Source: Candidatus Saccharimonadota bacterium
Lineage (GTDB): Bacteria > Patescibacteriota > Saccharimonadia > Saccharimonadales > Saccharimonadaceae
Assembly: GCA_027451185.1 (NCBI GenBank)
Contig: DAIDJW010000001.1
Location: 1 to 32,536, forward strand
Direction: 5' to 3'
DNA length: 32,536 nt
The notes below the pieces were generated by a model. That model was not told where the DNA came from and searched no databases. It saw only the letters and a list, made by a program, of their open reading frames with translations. Below are positions 1 to 19,476 of the stretch, piece by piece. Positions within the stretch are counted from its first letter, which is position 1. Each line of letters starts with the position of its first letter. Both the position numbers and the translations under genes were made by a program.

Positions 1-160
1 GACAAACAAGCGCGCAATTTTCGATCTGTTGTCCGAGTACAAATCGCTGCTTCTTTGGAAACGTATTCGCTTTCTCGAACAGCCACAAGGTTATCTCAAG
101 CATTTTTGTATGAATAATGAACTCGTCTGATTTTGCGGTGGGCTTGAGTTGTTTTGCCAT
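1..160 (-). CDS. avd: Avd-like four-helix-bundle protein (candidate DGR accessory variability determinant). Only the N-terminal 53 codons are present; the gene runs off the left edge.
   Basis: Absent from the ORF track because there is no stop in the window. ATG at 160..158 on the minus strand. Hand translation: MAKQLKPTAKSDEFIIHTKMLEITLWLFEKANTFPKKQRFVLGQQIENCALVC. The FPK-xx-RF-x-LG-xx-I segment matches my recollection of the Avd / 23S-rRNA-IVS four-helix-bundle family. It lies directly 3' of an FGE-type C-lectin gene on the same strand. Confidence 0.5.
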   Translation of the reverse strand, partial: MAKQLKPTAKSDEFIIHTKMLEITLWLFEKANTFPKKQRFVLGQQIENCALVC

Positions 161-230: not shown

Positions 231-250
231 GTAAGCCCTGTCGGGCTTAC
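231..250 (-). other. Perfect 8-bp stem / 4-nt loop hairpin between the pilin-FGE gene and avd. Candidate DGR target-site hairpin, or alternatively a weak terminator.
   Basis: Plus strand gtaagccc-tgtc-gggcttac; minus strand GTAAGCCC-GACA-GGGCTTAC. It lies 41 nt past the stop codon at 292..294. No immediate U-run follows on the minus strand. Confidence 0.4.
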
Positions 251-291: not shown

Positions 292-1509
292 TCACCGCGA
301 GACACGGAACCCGAGGATGCTGCCCGTGCTGCCAGGCGAATTGCTCAAAGCGAGCGCCCAGACACCCGCAGCGCTGCCGCCGTTCCAGTAGTCGCTGCGG
401 AAGAAGCCGCGGACACCTGTGTCATTGCTAGCTGAATACAGTTGGCCAATACCTTGACCCGAGTTCCAACCGCTGGCAGATGGAATTCCGTACGATGGGA
501 ACGGATTAGGTGATAGGCTGCCGGTACCAGGGACACTGTTCCACTGTCGCCAGCCGAAGCCCGCAGCGCCTGGTTGGCCACCGGTGGTCGTGCCACTCGT
601 CCACTGCCAGACGTTGCCCGCCATATCCCAAATGACATTGCCGTTCGTTAAGGTGAGTGTGCGACGTTGATTACCACCCGTATTTGTTTCGCCGTAGTAA
701 CCGTTGCTATCATTAGTATCAGCCGCTAACGCATTAGCTGGGGCATTGTCGTTGTGTCCAGAATAGATATAGCCGCTTCCAACACTGCCACCAGACCAGT
801 TGCTGGCAACACTAGTAACGTTCTGTGCAATAGTGAGCCATTCGGCTTCGGTGATGAGATGGCAACCAGAACAGGCAGCTGCTGACGTAGAGATAGCTGT
901 TGTTTGGGAGATATTTACCCAGGGCGAACCAGCTGCGGTCGATACGGCGTTACCACTGCCATCGTTCTTAGCGTCATACTTCATCACACAGAAGGCATTA
1001 GTACCGTAAAGGCTGGAGCCAGGCACGACGATGTACCCAGTTGGACACGAAGAGCCGTCTGCCAGCGTTGTCGGTGCAGTTCCCGTGTGTCCTGGACATG
1101 GGCCAGCTGTTGGGGTACCACCAGTCGCGACAGAGTACGAGGCAGTACTAACCGTAGCGGTCAGACAATAGGTTTGTGGGCTGACGGTGGTGTTCGGCGT
1201 GTACTGATAGCTAGTGCTGCCAGAGTTTGTCAGGCCAGCGGTAGCGAGGTCTGGAGGGACTTGGTCGCTATTAGTAGCAGTGTAGATAGCGATCTTTTCT
1301 CCTGCCTGCTCAGCAGCAGACTGAGCTGAGGCAATGTTGGCTTTCGCAGTAATACCGTTGTAAGCGACAACGGTGATAGCCGCTAGGATGGCAATGACGA
1401 CAATAACGATGAGGAGTTCGACGAGGGTGAAGCCAGGTTGTCTACTGCGCTTTGGTGGATGTCCGCGCAGTGAAGCGTCGCCCTTGAGGATGAGGTTAAC
1501 AACAGCCAT
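292..1509 (-). CDS. Type IV pilin-like protein (prepilin cleavage/methylation motif) fused to an FGE-sulfatase/SUMF1-type C-lectin-fold domain. Candidate DGR target protein.
   Basis: 405-aa ORF. The N-terminus has QPG|FTLVELLIVIVVIAILAAI (G-1, F+1, E+5) after a 26-aa leader. The C-terminal half has FCVMKYDAKNDG, SPWVNISQ, HLITEAEWLTIAQN, DMAGNVWQWTSG and a terminal LGFRVSR. No Shine-Dalgarno; the ATG is preceded by (CT)9. Confidence 0.85.
   Translation of the reverse strand: MAVVNLILKGDASLRGHPPKRSRQPGFTLVELLIVIVVIAILAAITVVAYNGITAKANIASAQSAAEQAGEKIAIYTATNSDQVPPDLATAGLTNSGSTSYQYTPNTTVSPQTYCLTATVSTASYSVATGGTPTAGPCPGHTGTAPTTLADGSSCPTGYIVVPGSSLYGTNAFCVMKYDAKNDGSGNAVSTAAGSPWVNISQTTAISTSAAACSGCHLITEAEWLTIAQNVTSVASNWSGGSVGSGYIYSGHNDNAPANALAADTNDSNGYYGETNTGGNQRRTLTLTNGNVIWDMAGNVWQWTSGTTTGGQPGAAGFGWRQWNSVPGTGSLSPNPFPSYGIPSASGWNSGQGIGQLYSASNDTGVRGFFRSDYWNGGSAAGVWALALSNSPGSTGSILGFRVSR
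295..399 (-). other. Candidate DGR variable region (VR) at the extreme 3' end of the pilin-FGE gene. Its 5' limit is uncertain and could reach about 440.
   Basis: Encodes RSDYWNGGSAAGVWALALSNSPGSTGSILGFRVSR-stop. That is the usual position of the VR in FGE/C-lectin DGR targets. 17 of 29 codons before LGFR are NNC by hand count. No TR is available in the window for comparison. Confidence 0.35.
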
Positions 1510-1510
1510 A

Positions 1511-1528
1511 AGAGAGAGAGAGAGAGAG
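1511..1528. repeat. Dinucleotide microsatellite: (AG)9 on the plus strand, (CT)9 on the coding strand of the pilin-FGE gene.
   Basis: Read directly: agagagagagagagagag at 1511..1528, 2 nt from the start codon (1509..1507). The tract continues imperfectly as aagag to 1533. Confidence 0.95.
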
Positions 1529-1893
1529 AAGAGTTGCTAGTTTTATGAATCGTTGTGTAATTAGTGAAATTTCCACCGTTTTTACTAAAATTCATACGAC
1601 CGTACTTTCTTCTCTAGCTATATTAAATATGTCTAGTGGCAGTATACCATAAGCTAAATATAGCGTACAAGATATCCAACCAACGGACGAAAAGTCGGGC
1701 AGTTCGGCTTCATAAATATAGTTATGTGTAGTGCGGTTCACTAGGGGCGTGGGGATTCGTTCTTCCACCTCACGACCCCGTGAGTTCACGTTTGACAATC
1801 AATCGCCATCGGAACATCGCTCTCAAACTACCGCTGGCAGTTTTCGCCCCCTCATGTCACTCGGGTATTAGAATCGCTCAACCCTGAATCAAG

Positions 1894-2162: not shown

Positions 2163-2630
2163 ATGTCTCTCGCGAACGAGAAAAACCCATTACATGCCAG
2201 TGCGTTGCGCTTGCGCGACCTGACGGTCGGACGGCACATCATCGCGTTCAACATCGACCTCGGTATCATGGGCGAGTACATCGTCATGAGCCGGCCGTTT
2301 GTCGGCGACGGCATGTTCGGTCGCACCACCATGGTGAGCCTGCGAAACACACAGACTGGTCTCGCAGACTCACACTACACCGAAGACCTCGGTGTCACGA
2401 TGTATCTGAGCGACGACGAGCAGCCGAACAACTACTGGAACTCCGTCAACTTCACGATCGACCACCGCAAGCGGCACCTGCTGCCGAAGCCGTTGATCGA
2501 CTCGGGCACAGGCATCGACGACCTGGAGACTAGGATACTACGCCGTATCCTGACCGATTCCTCCGAGGAGTACGCGGCCGACGTGGAGGCGATGGACCGA
2601 CTCTGGCGGGCACTGGAGGCGATGGAGTAG
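2163..2630 (+). CDS. Hypothetical protein (155 aa) with markedly GC3-rich codon usage. Probably horizontally acquired.
   Basis: The ORF has its own promoter and an AAGGGTG SD-like element 4 nt upstream. Codons are almost all NNC/NNG (GAC, ATC, CTG, AAC, CGC), unlike flanking genes. Hand-counted GC is about 55-65% per 60-nt block. I recognise no family. Confidence 0.6.
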   Translation: MSLANEKNPLHASALRLRDLTVGRHIIAFNIDLGIMGEYIVMSRPFVGDGMFGRTTMVSLRNTQTGLADSHYTEDLGVTMYLSDDEQPNNYWNSVNFTIDHRKRHLLPKPLIDSGTGIDDLETRILRRILTDSSEEYAADVEAMDRLWRALEAME

Positions 2631-6753: not shown

Positions 6754-8823
6754 ATGAGAAGACGTGGCTTCACCCTGGTCGAGTTGCTGATTGTTATTTC
6801 TGTGATCGGCATTTTAACGACCGTCGCAGCCATTAGTTATTCGGTTGTTCAACGTAATTCGCGCGACACTGTTCGCGCCGCGCAACTAGCAACCATCGAT
6901 AATGCGCTTGAAGATTATTATCAAAAAAACGGCGAATATCCACCAGCGCGTAATATTGTTAATAGTTATAGCAGCAACACCGCCCAATCGGTCGCCAACT
7001 TATTGGGTATTAACGCCTCAAACCTCGATCTGCCAGGCTGCCCAACCGGCGTAAATCCATTCATTAGTTCACCGACTAATGCTACGACTTGCACAATCGT
7101 TTACCAGCCGTCGTCGAATATCAATAACACCACTTGCGAAACTGCTACCAACGGTGGTTGTGATTCGTTTGTGTTGACTTATTCTAAAGAAAGTGGCCAG
7201 ACAGTAGCTATCAATAGTCGACGCTCTGGCCGACCGGAAGGCGCCGTAGCCGACGCACCACCGGCGCCAACTGTCACGGTTAGCGGTAGCGGCACAACCG
7301 CCACCGCCCAGTCGTCGGTTGCCCAGTGCGGCAGTGCCACAACACCTAAATATTCATTTAATTACCGTCCAAGCGGTGGGGCGTGGGGCAGCTGGACTAT
7401 TTTTCAGGCCAACCCCAGTTATTCTTATGGCGGCTTAACCGTCGGCAGTAATTATGGTTTTGAGGTTGAAGCCCGTTGCGATAATGGCGCCTACATCGGC
7501 AACCTTAGCAACCCAAGCGCCGAGGTTATCTATCAAGTGCCGATACCAGCGCCGACAGCAACGACAGTTACAACAAGCGCCGAAACAAGTACCGGCGTAG
7601 CCTTTTCGTGGCCAGCTCAACAATACGCCACCAGTTATAATTATCAATACCGCATCAATGGCGGCGCCTGGTCATCTAACCAGTCAACTACTAGCACGGC
7701 CGCAACAATTAGTAGCTCTAATGGCGCCCATGTTGAACTACAAGCTCAAGCGGTTAACCCAACCGGTACATCTGGCTGGTCGAACATTGCCAGCGGCTAC
7801 TTACTGCCGGCGGCCCCGACAGCATCGTACACATCCGTCACCACTACAACCATGGTCTTCAATTGGACGACCGTCACCGGGGCAACTCGTTACGAATTTC
7901 AGTATCGAGTCAATAGCGGCGCCTGGTCGGGTACGGTTAACGACGGCGCGTCAACGACCTGGACGGCCGGACCGACTACACCCGGTACAAGAATTGAAAT
8001 CCAGGTACATGCCATTAACAGCGACGGTAATGCTGGACCATGGTCGACCGTCGTCGGTACAACCCTAGGTATCGGAACGCCTGCCTGGAACGCTTGGGGT
8101 CGCACCGATACCTTTCCAACTTGGACAACTTGGGTATACAACAACAGCGGTGCGTCGCTGTGCGGTGGCGCAAGTATCTATTCGTCATTCCACGATGGTG
8201 TTGTTAACTCATTCTGGAATGGCTGGGGCGCCTTTGGTAGCAACGGCGGTAGTTCAGAAACGCTGCATTATGGATCATACATCGCCAGCTACTACACAAC
8301 CTTACAAACTGAAATTCAAGGCTACTGTCGTAACGACGCCACCGGCGTGCAGTCGCCAACCATTAGTAGCGGCGTCAGCACGACGACACACGCCCAACCA
8401 AATGTTGTGCTGTCGGGGCCCGTGGTGTGCGCCGGCACATATTCGGGGCGTAGCGCTTTCCAAATAAGGTTACAGGTCCAAGAAACTAGCTATAACCTTG
8501 ACGCCGACCAAAGTAATGTTCACTGGTACTTATACCGATATGCCGCCGCATCTGGCTGGCAGACATACGACCAAACTAAAACCTGGCCATGGTCGGTTAG
8601 TGTCAACGGGTCTGGTTGGTCGGGTAGTAGTAACTCTGGCCGCTGGCGATATTCGGCTAGCGTTGTTGGCGATACCGAAGGAATCGCTTCGGGTGACGTT
8701 ACGGTTACCCACGACGGCAACGGTAACGCCACGATTGGTTTCTCGGGGTCAGATGGACCGGGCAGTTCCATTTTCGGCAGCGCATCGTGTTCTGGCGCCT
8801 ATGGTTTATCTAAATTACGCTAA
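6754..8823 (+). CDS. Large type IV pilin-like protein (689 aa) with three tandem Fn3-like modules and a C-terminal domain resembling phage tail / DUF859-type proteins.
   Basis: MRRRG|FTLVELLIVISVIGIL prepilin motif. Three repeats of about 90 aa each carry Y-x-F/Y-x-YR-x-xGGAW (YSFNYRPSGGAWGSW, YNYQYRINGGAWSS, YEFQYRVNSGAWSG). C-terminus: SYNLDADQSNVHWYLYRY...WSVSVNGSGWSGS...GDVTVTHDGNGNATIGFSGS. Confidence 0.85.
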   Translation: MRRRGFTLVELLIVISVIGILTTVAAISYSVVQRNSRDTVRAAQLATIDNALEDYYQKNGEYPPARNIVNSYSSNTAQSVANLLGINASNLDLPGCPTGVNPFISSPTNATTCTIVYQPSSNINNTTCETATNGGCDSFVLTYSKESGQTVAINSRRSGRPEGAVADAPPAPTVTVSGSGTTATAQSSVAQCGSATTPKYSFNYRPSGGAWGSWTIFQANPSYSYGGLTVGSNYGFEVEARCDNGAYIGNLSNPSAEVIYQVPIPAPTATTVTTSAETSTGVAFSWPAQQYATSYNYQYRINGGAWSSNQSTTSTAATISSSNGAHVELQAQAVNPTGTSGWSNIASGYLLPAAPTASYTSVTTTTMVFNWTTVTGATRYEFQYRVNSGAWSGTVNDGASTTWTAGPTTPGTRIEIQVHAINSDGNAGPWSTVVGTTLGIGTPAWNAWGRTDTFPTWTTWVYNNSGASLCGGASIYSSFHDGVVNSFWNGWGAFGSNGGSSETLHYGSYIASYYTTLQTEIQGYCRNDATGVQSPTISSGVSTTTHAQPNVVLSGPVVCAGTYSGRSAFQIRLQVQETSYNLDADQSNVHWYLYRYAAASGWQTYDQTKTWPWSVSVNGSGWSGSSNSGRWRYSASVVGDTEGIASGDVTVTHDGNGNATIGFSGSDGPGSSIFGSASCSGAYGLSKLR

Positions 8824-14778: not shown

Positions 14779-17029
<2,251 letters not shown>

Positions 17030-17030
<1 letters not shown>

Positions 17031-18556
17031 TAGTTTTCAAACCCCTTGGCAACCGATGCGGCAACTTTCTCAATCTTTTTGAGCTGCTCTTCAGTTGGTG
17101 CGGCACCTTGATTAATTTGGTCTAGGTCCGACTTATAGTCAGTCTCAAGCCGGGTGAGTAGCGCTTCTTGAGCTTCACGCACCGAGCTAACTTTGACGCC
17201 ATCAAAGAAACCATTGCCCACCACGTAGACACTGACGACTTGTTGCCAGATGCTGAGCGGCTGGTATTGCGGTTGTTTCAAAAGCTCAGTCAAGCGCTGA
17301 CCACGTTCAATTTGCTTACGCGTGTCATCGTCGAGGTCGCTGCCGAACTGCGCAAAGCCAGCTAGTTCGCGGAACTGTGCCAAGCTAAGGCGCAAGCGGC
17401 TACTAACCGATTTAATGGCTTTGGTTTGAGCCGAACCACCGACACGACTAACCGACAGACCAACCGAAATTGCTGGTCGAATACCTTGGTAGAATAAGTC
17501 AGTTTCTAGAAAAATTTGGCCGTCGGTAATCGAGATAACGTTGGTCGGTACATAAGCCGAGATGTCACCGGCTTGGGTTTCAATAATCGGTAGGGCGGTC
17601 AAGCTACCGCCACCAAGCTCATCGGACAATTTAGCCGAACGCTCCAATAAGCGCGAATGCAGGTAGAAAACGTCCCCCGGAAAAGCTTCGCGTCCCGGTG
17701 GACGGCGCAACAAAAGTGACATCTGACGATAGGCGACAGCGTGCTTGGTTAGGTCGTCGTAAACCATCAGGGCGTGACCGCCATTATCACGGAAATATTC
17801 ACCCATGGCCGTAGCTGCGTAAGGCGCCAAGTACAGCAATGAAGCTGGGTCGGCCGGGCTGGTGGCGACAACGATCGTCTGGTCCATAACGCCTTCGTCC
17901 TTTAGGCGCTCGACCAAACGAGCGACTTTAGATAGCTTTTGGCCAATCGCCACGTAGATATTAACCACACCAGTTTTTTGCTTGGCTTGGTTAATCATCG
18001 TATCAACCGCAATGGCCGTTTTACCGGTTTGGCGGTCGCCGATAATCAGCTCACGCTGACCACGGCCAATTGGAATCATGGTATCAATCGCCATAATACC
18101 GGTCATTAGTGGTTCGGAAACGCCCTTGCGCCCCATGACGCCGATGGCTTCGCGCTCCACTAAACCTGTGTGCTTAGTTTCAATTGCCGGGCCGCCGTCA
18201 AGCGGTTCACCGAGTGGATTCACAACTCGGCCCAGCAAAGCTTCACCCACTGGAACCTCTAGCAGGGTACCCTTCAAGCGAACTTTATCACCGGCCGACA
18301 CGGCCGATTCATCGCCTAAGATAACGGCGCCAATTTCGTCTTCCATCAGGTTTAAGGCAAACGACTCAATCTTTTGGTCGCCGCTTTCAATCACCAGCAT
18401 TTCGCTAAAACCGGCGTTAGTCAGGCCGTGCACCCAGGCTACGCCGTCGCCGACGCGAATTACAATACCGACATCGCCCAAGCCCTCAGTTGCCTCAAGG
18501 CCAGCAATCGCGTCGCGCAGTTCTTTGGATAGTTCAGTTACAGATATTTCACTCAT
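17030..18556 (-). CDS. atpA: F1 ATP synthase alpha subunit.
   Basis: [12 protein letters not shown]-loop, [41 protein letters not shown]. Confidence 0.95.
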
Positions 18557-18559
18557 TTT

Positions 18560-18946
18560 CTATACCTTGCTTGCTTTTAGGTTTGTTAGTCGTCGGCGCA
18601 CCGTATTGTCCAGCTCTTGACCGTTAACATGCAGAATCAAACCGCTGATGAGCTTTGGCTCCTGGCTGGTGCGCAAATAAATTTTACTCTTTGGAAACTT
18701 GTCGGCAATAAAGCGATTCACCGACTCACTCAACCGAGCACTTAATTCGCGCGCTACAGTGACGTCAGCGATTACAATACCCCGTTCCACCAACGCCAAC
18801 TCGATATCGCGGACAATTAGCGAAGCTTCTTTGGTGCGTTTTGTCGTAACCAGATAGGCGGCCAGCTGATTGATAAACGGTCGCTTATTAGCAATCGCGT
18901 CGGCAGCATAATCTGCCAACTTACGACGACTCAGACGAACCGCCAT
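18560..18946 (-). CDS. atpH: ATP synthase delta (OSCP) subunit, unusually short at 128 aa.
   Basis: Sits between atpF and atpA. C-terminal OSCP-like pattern (ADVTVARELS...LISGLILHVNGQELDNTVRRRL). The N-terminal domain is roughly half the usual length. Confidence 0.7.
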   Translation of the reverse strand: MAVRLSRRKLADYAADAIANKRPFINQLAAYLVTTKRTKEASLIVRDIELALVERGIVIADVTVARELSARLSESVNRFIADKFPKSKIYLRTSQEPKLISGLILHVNGQELDNTVRRRLTNLKASKV

Positions 18947-19476
18947 TAATTCGTCTCCTTAAGAGCATTCGTGACAATCCTGTCATTAATACTGTCTTTG
19001 GCGACCGCACCGGCCGTGACTTTTTCGGTCGCTTCAGCGACCAAGTCGATTGCCTGGTTATAAAGTTCGCGCTTTGCGGCTGAGACATTTTTCTGAATTT
19101 CAGTCTGCGCGTTCGCCACAATAGTTTCGGCGTGCTGGCGAGCCTTGGTTTCTGCCGAAGCCACAGCCGCTACGGCTTCGTCTTTGGCAGTAGTCACAAT
19201 GTCGGCGGCCTGTTCGCGCGCCTGTTGAAGCATTCTGGCAACTTCTTTTTCGGCTTTGTCGGCCGTCTGCTTGGCTTCGTCGGCCGCCTCAAGTGTCGCC
19301 TCGATGGCAGCCTTACGAGCATCAACCGACTTCATTAGCCAAGGGTAGACATATTTTCCAAGTAGCCAAACCAGCACCAAAAAGGCCACAATCTGCAGCA
19401 AAAGCAGTTTCCAGTCAATACCAAGCACTCCAAAAATACTTTGGTTGGCTGCGGCAAATTGGGTCAAATTATTCAT
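18946..19476 (-). CDS. atpF: Fo ATP synthase b subunit.
   Basis: Single N-terminal TM helix (LLLLQIVAFLVLVWLLGKYVYPWL) followed by a long charged Ala/Glu/Lys-rich helix. Confidence 0.82.
   Translation of the reverse strand: MNNLTQFAAANQSIFGVLGIDWKLLLLQIVAFLVLVWLLGKYVYPWLMKSVDARKAAIEATLEAADEAKQTADKAEKEVARMLQQAREQAADIVTTAKDEAVAAVASAETKARQHAETIVANAQTEIQKNVSAAKRELYNQAIDLVAEATEKVTAGAVAKDSINDRIVTNALKETN

Follow-up and report, generated by a model that had tools for sequence, protein, structure and literature searches.

What does a pilin gene do when it ends in a binding domain of a hypervariable type, and is that domain still being rewritten? The question arises at one edge of contig DAIDJW010000001.1 (assembly GCA_027451185.1) of a Candidatus Saccharimonadota bacterium, a stretch of 32,536 nucleotides (nt), called here the window, which was analysed as a whole and is itself the whole contig. 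On its reverse strand, a gene at positions 292..1509 (stop codon 292-294) encodes a protein of 405 amino acids (aa). A first-pass annotation of this gene had proposed that a prepilin signal is fused there to a candidate hypervariable C-type lectin (C-lectin) domain, which would be diversified by a diversity-generating retroelement (DGR). The list of open reading frames (ORFs), Pfam, NCBIfam, an AlphaFold2 (AF2) model and matches in the PDB were brought together to define the gene. Our reading is that the product is probably a modular type IV pilin ending in a DGR-type domain of the C-lectin or formylglycine-generating enzyme (FGE) fold, in other words a pilus-borne adhesin with a surface that could be randomised anew. 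DGRs are abundant in the Patescibacteria radiation. All cultivated Patescibacteria attach, to our knowledge, to other microbes, and their host recognition is mostly unexplained.

In the following, we present the two modules of the protein and the evidence for mutagenesis at its C-terminus, then the retroelement cassette in the window and in related loci. The alternative explanations are weighed against this background, followed by the repeat tract preceding the gene, its neighbourhood, the mechanism that we propose and a comparison with known systems.

Prepilin signal and pilin module

The 405-aa product begins with MAVVNLILKGDASLRGHPPKRSRQPG|FTLVELLIVIVVIAILAAI, and the predicted cleavage site stands in the context RQPG|FTLVELLIVIVVIAILAAI, with G26 at position -1, F27 at +1 and E31 at +5. 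A glycine at -1, a hydrophobic residue at +1, a glutamate at +5 and then a hydrophobic stretch of about 20 residues compose a class III signal. The corresponding families were recovered by both profile collections: Pfam N_methyl (PF07963) matches residues 21-46 with 34.3 bits (cut-off 21.2) and NCBIfam TIGR02532 scores 30.9 bits (cut-off 16.3). The prepilin signal read from the sequence in the first-pass annotation is therefore reproduced, with the two families above their curated cut-offs. NCBIfam also returned weak matches to GspG and GspH, the pseudopilins of the type II secretion system (T2SS). A homologue search yielded 2,196 matches at E<=1e-3, from which 98 near-full-length sequences were taken for an architecture count; F27 and E31 are near-invariant across these 98 homologues, and leader lengths among homologues range from 6 to 56 aa. 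Searched as an exact protein, the 405-aa product had no identical record.

The pilin module that follows (positions 1120..1431, reverse strand) was delimited by DSSP on the AF2 model and by the family profile. Its mature N-terminus, FTLVELL..., carries the glutamate at +5 within a hydrophobic alpha-1N segment; the alpha-1 helix spans residues 29-79 and beta strands occupy residues 99-128. The model was built from the 98-sequence alignment and reached a mean predicted local distance difference test score (pLDDT) of 91.4 and a predicted template modelling score (pTM) of 0.86. In its N-terminal part, a disordered leader precedes the 50-residue helix and the strands 99-106, 113-120 and 123-128, with pLDDT >90. 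As modelled, helix and three-stranded sheet form the classical pilin 'lollipop', after which comes a mixed alpha/beta C-terminal domain. Compared with the PDB, the family profile matches a Geobacter pilin (E=4.6e-14), Thermus PilA (6xxd, E=1.6e-12) over profile positions 15-143, corresponding to the entire chain, and also Neisseria PilE, the E-values for type IVa pilins lying between 1e-11 and 1e-14. The class III signal, the 50-residue alpha-1 helix, the beta-sheet head and the full-length match to Thermus PilA identify the N-terminus as a real pilin module and not as the bare transmembrane (TM) anchor that had been envisaged as the condition under which the pilin assignment would fail.

The long leader had also suggested a kinship with type IVb pilins. 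These are recognized by a leader of about 15-30 aa, a residue other than Phe at +1 and a IVb-type head. The likeness does not hold for the window protein, since Phe occupies +1 and the best sequence matches are type IVa; the PDB entries matched by the pilin part of the profile are, without exception, type IVa pilins or T2SS GspG, and the type IVb assignment is ruled out on these grounds. Judging from its sequence, the protein has a type IVa-like mature N-terminus and is best called a 'modular' pilin, probably minor or tip.

A C-terminal domain of the C-lectin type

The FGE-like or C-type lectin domain covers about residues 155-405 (positions 295..1047, reverse strand) and was delimited by a partial PF03781 match, by Foldseek and by the family profile. 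For the protein itself, PF03781 (FGE-sulfatase) reaches 21.2 bits, under its cut-off of 23.3, in a partial match of residues 189-306 to profile positions 85-191 of 255. In the architecture count, N_methyl was matched in 93 of the 98 near-full-length homologues and FGE-sulfatase in 56 at E<=1e-3 (best E=3.9e-10). The domain search suggested in the first-pass annotation thus succeeded in one half, the prepilin motif being above cut-off, and gave for the other half a sub-threshold PF03781 score in the 405-aa protein that becomes a match in homologues. The two-part architecture is kept in nearly all of the ~100 best full-length homologues, and this rules out the fusion as an artefact of assembly or ORF calling.

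Searched against the PDB with Foldseek, the model finds as best matches the DGR variable proteins TaqVP (5vf4, E=4.6e-9), TvpA (2y3c, E=6.7e-4) and Mtd (1yu0, E=8.5e-4; 1yu0 to 1yu4), and the FGE-fold proteins PvdO, EgtB and PorK rank below them. By profile as well, the C-terminal half of the family matches TaqVP 5vf4 (E=9.7e-6). The predicted FGE/C-lectin fold is confirmed in this way, and its place is beside DGR variable proteins. Cysteines occur at residues 115, 138, 155, 174, 213 and 216 of the protein and nowhere in residues 217-405. The catalytic cysteine pair of FGE is located in the C-terminal part of the domain; with no cysteine after residue 216, the window protein therefore has no FGE-type catalytic centre. 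The C-terminal domain belongs to the DGR C-lectin type and provides a scaffold for binding.

Probable mutagenesis footprint in the putative variable region

The putative variable region (VR) consists of the last 42 codons (positions 295..420, reverse strand; ...GFFRSDYWNGGSAAGVWALALSNSPGSTGSILGFRVSR), as delimited by a codon-for-codon alignment to the VRs and template repeats (TRs) of related DGRs. This alignment extends to the TRs of four related loci (L009, L089, L121 and L122; handles of this form designate the loci compared with the window), and the peptide encoded by the TR in relatives is strikingly conserved: ...GF(I/L)RGGNWNNGGNAGVLTLNLNN(A/G)PSNTNTNIGFRVSR.

Three alleles were compared, namely the window gene, its counterpart in L084, which is identical over the first ~930 nt, and an orthologue of 84% identity from another species, represented by L001-L004. 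The TRs of the relatives L009 and L089 served as proxies for the adenine sites in a Fisher test that covered the last 126 nt. Of the 29 sites where the L009 TR has an adenine, 19 are different between the window and L084, compared with 9 of the 97 other sites (p=3.7e-9). Enrichment at adenine sites recurs between the window and the orthologue (p=5.8e-6 with the L009 TR, 2.8e-6 with the L089 TR) and between L084 and the orthologue (p=5e-5 and 3.3e-6, respectively); the remaining allele pairs together with the second TR proxy span p=5e-5 to 3e-7. The position of the changes within codons also differs along the gene: between the window and the orthologue, 25 of the 33 differences in the last 138 nt fall at codon positions 1+2; over the first 900 nt the share is 54 of 189, and third positions prevail. 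As far as these alignments allow one to judge, the allele pattern bears the mark of adenine-directed mutagenesis acting on AAY codons, and the VR has very likely been shaped by DGR mutagenesis.

A different kind of change is superimposed on the L084 allele. Over the last ~100 codons, a mosaic patch of ~340 nt (window ~250-590, L084 ~1215-1551 plus L120 1-60) shows ~75% identity, a 3-nt indel and many non-adenine changes, the two sequences being identical up to position ~590 and near-identical again past the stop codon. The patch looks like recombination, gene conversion or an assembly chimera of paralogues and not like retrohoming; its donor was absent from the loci fetched.

The retroelement cassette in the window and in relatives

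The window ends 291 nt downstream of the pilin stop. Within this short interval lie the first 53 codons of the DGR accessory gene avd (positions 2..160, reverse strand), which runs off the contig end. The ORF begins at position 160, 130 nt downstream of the pilin stop, and reads MAKQLKPTAKSDEFIIHTKMLEITLWLFEKANTFPKKQRFVLGQQIENCALVC. It was identified by two profiles, DivGenRetAVD of NCBIfam (E=3.4e-5) and bAvd of Pfam (E=1.5e-3), whose scores remain under cut-off because the gene is truncated (53 of ~125 residues), and by its identity of 72-90% to the avd genes found right behind pilin-FGE targets in the verified loci L009, L096 and L121. An exact 28-mer from the avd end had no match in the JGI metagenomes; a degenerate avd pattern retrieved 35 related loci. 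Between the two genes, 41 nt past the stop, a hairpin with a perfect 8-bp stem and a 4-nt loop, GTAAGCCC-GACA-GGGCTTAC (positions 231..250, reverse strand), is found in identical form in L120. Hairpins occur at a like distance in some relatives, their sequences are not conserved, and the folding energy of the region is unremarkable (z=-1.2). Its role may be that of a terminator or of a hairpin for DGR target recognition.

The relatives display what a complete DGR of this type looks like: a pilin-FGE target, avd, a reverse transcriptase (RT) gene on the opposite strand and a TR (small ORF after avd in L009). Cassette coordinates are 9287-11462 in L009, 9379-10818 in L029, 6001-7636 in L121 and 6001-7646 in L122. 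The RT gene lies 0.1-0.5 kb past avd, a place that in the window would fall past the contig end, and in this DGR clade the TR follows beyond the 5' end of the RT gene and points the same way as the VR. Mismatches between TR and VR are confined to adenines in L009 (18/18), L085 (14/14), L096 (11/11) and L121 (13/13), and in L122 14 of the 15 are at adenines. The targets of these loci all have a prepilin-type N-terminus, located for L122 upstream of the called gene start. In L121, avd is divided into two ORFs (77 + 61 aa), yet all mismatches are at adenines; a PilM homologue (PilM_2) is encoded about 3.2 kb upstream in the same gene cluster. L029 possesses avd and RT, and no TR was detected there. 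The full-length avd genes that match the window fragment best (90% identity; L096, L103 and L121) all belong to cassettes with an RT.

The genomic settings of these loci are diverse. The closest ones belong to Saccharibacteria/Microsaccharimonas metagenome-assembled genomes (MAGs). In L122/L123 (1711-9871), the cassette is surrounded by mobile-element or prophage-like genes encoding a serine recombinase (Resolvase), Peptidase_S24, Bro-N and helix-turn-helix regulators; the L122 target is called from a late start, and both its prepilin motif and a (TC)n tract are located before this start in a different frame. Pilin-FGE homologues were also encountered in assemblies labelled Glaciihabitans sp. 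UYNi722 (L005), Cryobacterium lyxosi TMT1-1 (L025), Microbacterium MAG (L044) and Actinomycetes MAG (L020). Their identity to the window protein is 63-64% in the three Microbacteriaceae-labelled records and 52% in the Actinomycetes MAG; the contigs measure 109-319 kb and the local GC content is ~60%, versus 44-50% in Saccharibacteria loci. The neighbourhood of L025 is a type I restriction-modification island. These actinobacterial-labelled homologues could reflect gene exchange with actinobacterial hosts or a co-assembled epibiont.

Intact cassette or relic target

The DGR inference of the first-pass annotation is strongly, if indirectly, supported: the start of avd adjoins the pilin gene, relatives carry full cassettes and the alleles differ mainly at adenine sites. 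No TR was found in the window and no RT among its scanned ORFs, and the DGR may no longer be active here. Several results weigh against an active retroelement beside this gene. A repeat search with positions 292-450 found no copy across the 32.5-kb window that could serve as TR, and no RT was encountered among the scanned window ORFs of at least 100 aa (the block 16164-19476 by the ATP synthase genes excluded). The avd gene is visible for 53 codons only. The TRs of relatives mismatch the window VR at 20-27% of non-adenine sites, which rules out those of L009, L089, L121 and L122 as its cognate template. Related strains and paralogues add to these points. L120 continues the L084 strain (from SRR29076162), with a 29-nt overlap located exactly at the VR 3' boundary, and shares the intergenic region, the hairpin and the avd start with the window (97-100% identity). 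After about codon 37, the L120 avd gives way to the 3' end of a LamG (Laminin_G_3) domain gene (L120 154-571), and neither RT nor TR is present within the next 2.4 kb. In L001-L004, the orthologues of 84% identity, the 8-10 kb that follow the gene contain no cassette, an rRNA methyltransferase gene occupying its place, and most Saccharibacteria paralogues (32 loci) have no DGR within 8 kb downstream. A further possibility, that the L004 orthologue VR is a remote target of the L009 DGR of the same MAG, was ruled out by mismatches at 24-27 of about 90 non-adenine sites.

These observations give substance to an alternative according to which the gene is a relic target: the C-lectin tip would have been diversified formerly, the cassette would be decaying, the VR would be static, and the differences between strains would combine old DGR events with recombination. 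We consider this explanation possible without favouring it. In its favour, the nearest strain has a shortened avd gene joined to an unrelated LamG fragment and neither RT nor TR nearby, and the L001-L004 orthologues still exhibit the adenine-site pattern without a cassette. Six further loci (L091, L092, L101, L105, L111 and L115) retain the N-terminal part of avd only (39-70 codons), with no RT in the DNA examined, some of which is short or cut. The mosaic patch of L084, with its indel and non-adenine changes, testifies to recombination and not to retrohoming. Against it, the reading frame of avd in the window, which includes the conserved FPKKQRFVLGQQIEN motif, continues 14 codons past the L120 breakpoint to the contig end, and avd genes of 90% identity (L096, L103 and L121) reside in RT-bearing cassettes, two of which (L096 and L121) have adenine-only mismatches.

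Taken together, the cassette beside this orthologue group is seen to be intact, broken or absent depending on the lineage. For the window locus itself, the chances that the DGR is intact are about even. It seems that decay of DGR cassettes is frequent in this lineage and that their targets persist.

Pilus subunit or surface anchor

The other alternative concerns the N-terminus. The prepilin-like segment could merely anchor or export the protein, in which case an extended fibre would not carry the lectin domain, whose place would be the cell surface or a short pseudopilus. DGR surveys do call cellular targets membrane-anchored, by an N-terminal TM segment or a signal peptide (PMC8144416). No pilus machinery genes were found among the surveyed ORFs of the 32.5-kb window, which speaks against a pilus subunit, the leader, although its exact length is uncertain, is unusually long, and the GspG and GspH matches, weak as they are, point to pseudopilins. 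We nevertheless regard this explanation as unlikely: a complete pilin head, beyond the helix alone, is predicted at high confidence, the G-1, F+1 and E+5 residues are conserved, with F27 and E31 near-invariant in the homologues, and a DGR-linked relative (L121) is clustered with pilM. In addition, Saccharibacteria build type IV pili (T4P) with modular minor pilins for host binding (PMC11623550).

Hardly any weight can be given to the last alternative, an enzyme of the formylglycine-generating or SUMF1-EgtB-PvdO family in place of a binding domain: suggested by the sub-threshold PF03781 match, the NCBI name of one homologue ('SUMF1/EgtB/PvdO family nonheme iron enzyme') and the presence of EgtB and PvdO lower in the fold search, this function is ruled out by the fold ranking, headed by non-enzymatic DGR variable proteins, and by the cysteine positions, which leave no catalytic pair, and it sits badly with 42 C-terminal residues that are hypervariable among alleles.

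A dinucleotide tract before the leader

The pilin gene is preceded by a (TC)9 tract (positions 1511..1529, reverse strand) that stops 2 nt before the ATG at 1509 and is a candidate for slipped-strand phase variation. It is the sole long dinucleotide repeat of the window, and its length varies from 19 nt in the window to 23 nt in L084 and 29 nt in L001-4. On its far side, an upstream ATG (1593-1595), itself preceded by a purine-rich stretch, opens ORF 1383..1595 and an alternative long-leader segment, MNFSKNGGNFTNYTTIHKTSNS-(SL)n (positions 1530..1595, reverse strand). This ATG 1595 is out of frame with the pilin in the window and in L001; it is in frame in L084, where it gives a 436-aa product (P0002). 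Homologous tracts are present in the leader-coding region of the DGR-linked relatives L009, L029, L096, L097, L121 and L122. For several tract-bearing relatives, the sole in-frame start lies upstream of the tract, which then encodes the (SL)n portion of a leader of 32-53 aa. Tracts of at least 17 nt occur in 11 members; 4 of them have the upstream ATG in frame, and in the other 7, which include the verified DGR targets L009, L096 and L122, it is out of frame. Assembled sequences would be expected to show such a picture under slipped-strand phase variation.

The leader peptide starting at ATG 1509 (positions 1432..1509, reverse strand) comprises residues 1-26 and ends in RSRQPG; it was delimited from the sequence and from the N_methyl motif. 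The length of 26 aa reported in the first-pass annotation does follow from the first ATG after the tract, and it is ambiguous because of the tract and the upstream ATG, the true start being uncertain. ATG 1509 has no obvious Shine-Dalgarno sequence. It is in frame and located after the tract, so expression in the window may not depend on the tract. Possible readings are a leader of 56 aa in the ON phase and a translation start at ATG 1509. From the sequences compared, the tract would probably add on/off or leader-length phase variation. Owing to the ambiguity of start sites, gene callers give differing starts and split products for tract-bearing genes.

Neighbouring genes

A second modular pilin gene is located at 6754-8823 on the forward strand. 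Its product of 689 aa starts with MRRRG|FTLVELLIVISVIGIL, where the leader is short, and continues with fibronectin type III-like repeats; the gene contains a direct repeat at 7627-7673 and 7882-7928. The DNA encoding its N-terminus and the corresponding stretch of the FGE pilin gene show 71% complementarity and form the inverted repeat I1. Closer to the FGE pilin, between tRNA-Gln (1926-1999) and a glycosyltransferase gene, a 155-aa ORF (2163-2630, forward strand) has no Pfam match and a GC content of 53% in its 1-kb bin, versus 46-51% in adjacent bins. In L001, an integrated element with a serine recombinase is found in the region near the tRNA U5-methyltransferase gene.

Proposed mechanism and significance

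The following scheme would account for the gene as a pilus-borne adhesin. Prepilin peptidase would cleave after G26 and the protein would polymerise into a type IV pilus, most likely as a low-abundance or tip subunit given the bulk of the 40-kDa protein. The C-lectin/FGE domain is grafted on the pilin, with the last ~42 codons as its putative variable region. By analogy with relatives, the cassette that starts with avd would continue past the contig end with an RT gene on the opposite strand and a TR of ~120 nt. It would rewrite the VR by adenine-specific mutagenic retrohoming, the variable codons being those that are AAY in the templates of relatives. The re-randomised binding surface would plausibly serve the recognition of host-cell surface structures by an epibiont of the Saccharibacteria type, a role that we infer because of the analogy with T4P-2 and PilX2 of TM7x.

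A wider and distinctly more tentative reading can be formulated. In Saccharibacteria and related Patescibacteria, a family of pilus adhesins might vary in three ways, through retrohoming at the DGR tip, through (TC)n phase variation in the long leader and through recombinational swapping of the C-terminal ~110 residues, which would jointly determine host recognition and host range; in the window copy the upstream start is out of frame and the cassette is cut by the contig end. The implied mechanism is that of a retractile filament presenting a programmable binding site, and it designates genes for the study of host range. If the (TC)n genes are contingency loci, metagenome gene callers would often mis-annotate or split them.

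Comparison with known systems

The repeat tract and the mosaic patch find their counterparts in Neisseria, where pilE/pilS recombination and phase-variable pilC with its homopolymer tract are contingency loci of host-adapted bacteria. Both cases have a simple-sequence repeat at the 5' end of an adhesin gene, varying in length between strains, and a mosaic 3' patch. Unlike in Neisseria, the repeat is here a (TC)n dinucleotide located in or beside the leader-coding sequence and combined with DGR mutagenesis, and putative switching is suggested by the tract lengths in assemblies.

Among DGR systems, the window protein shares its fold with TaqVP of Thermus aquaticus (5VF4), TvpA of Treponema denticola (2Y3C) and Mtd of Bordetella phage BPP-1 (1YU0). 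As in these systems, the VR occupies the last ~40 residues up to the stop, avd comes next and the mismatches in relatives are adenine-only. The N-terminal carrier sets the window protein apart: it is a type IV pilin module here, whereas Mtd has the trimerisation domain of a phage tail fibre and TvpA has a lipoprotein or secretion signal. The cassette layout is different as well, since relatives in this clade, though not the cut window copy, are seen to have the RT on the opposite strand and the TR past the RT. For Bacteroides type V pili, a DGR that diversifies a pilus adhesin subunit has been described; unlike the present case, these pili rely on an unrelated assembly system without a class III signal, in another phylum and ecology. 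The largest DGR survey describes cellular targets as membrane-anchored and leaves pilins unmentioned (PMC8144416).

On the pilus side, Nanosynbacter lyticus TM7x requires T4P-2 and the lectin-like modular minor pilin PilX2 for efficient host binding (PMC11623550). PilX2 and PilX1 resemble the window protein by their Saccharibacteria lineage and as large pilins with a C-terminal carbohydrate-binding-like domain. They differ by a beta-propeller or jelly-roll in place of the C-lectin/FGE fold, and no DGR or hypervariability was reported for them (PMC11623550). Modular type IV pilins such as Streptococcus sanguinis PilB (vWA module) and PilC (lectin module) have been proposed to be tip-exposed adhesins (PMC8179133), and the window protein has in common with them a class III signal peptide, a small pilin module, a grafted module and a predicted adhesin role. 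The combination IPR012902-IPR005532 (N_methyl + SUMF/FGE) is listed for 8 proteins in Dataset S1 of the same study, without discussion or link to DGRs (PMC8179133). Full-text searches on DGRs with pilins or prepilins and on DGRs or type IV pili in Saccharibacteria or Patescibacteria gave no characterisation of this class, a mention of pilin targets in Paul et al. 2017 being possible. The DGR C-lectin domain on a type IV pilin is thus widespread in Patescibacteria, catalogued and not analysed before. Unlike the modules of S. sanguinis PilB and PilC, the one grafted here is a hypermutable DGR-type C-lectin domain, and a large, recurrent class of DGR targets that are pilin subunits links host binding by T4P with the 'membrane-anchored' targets of DGRs.

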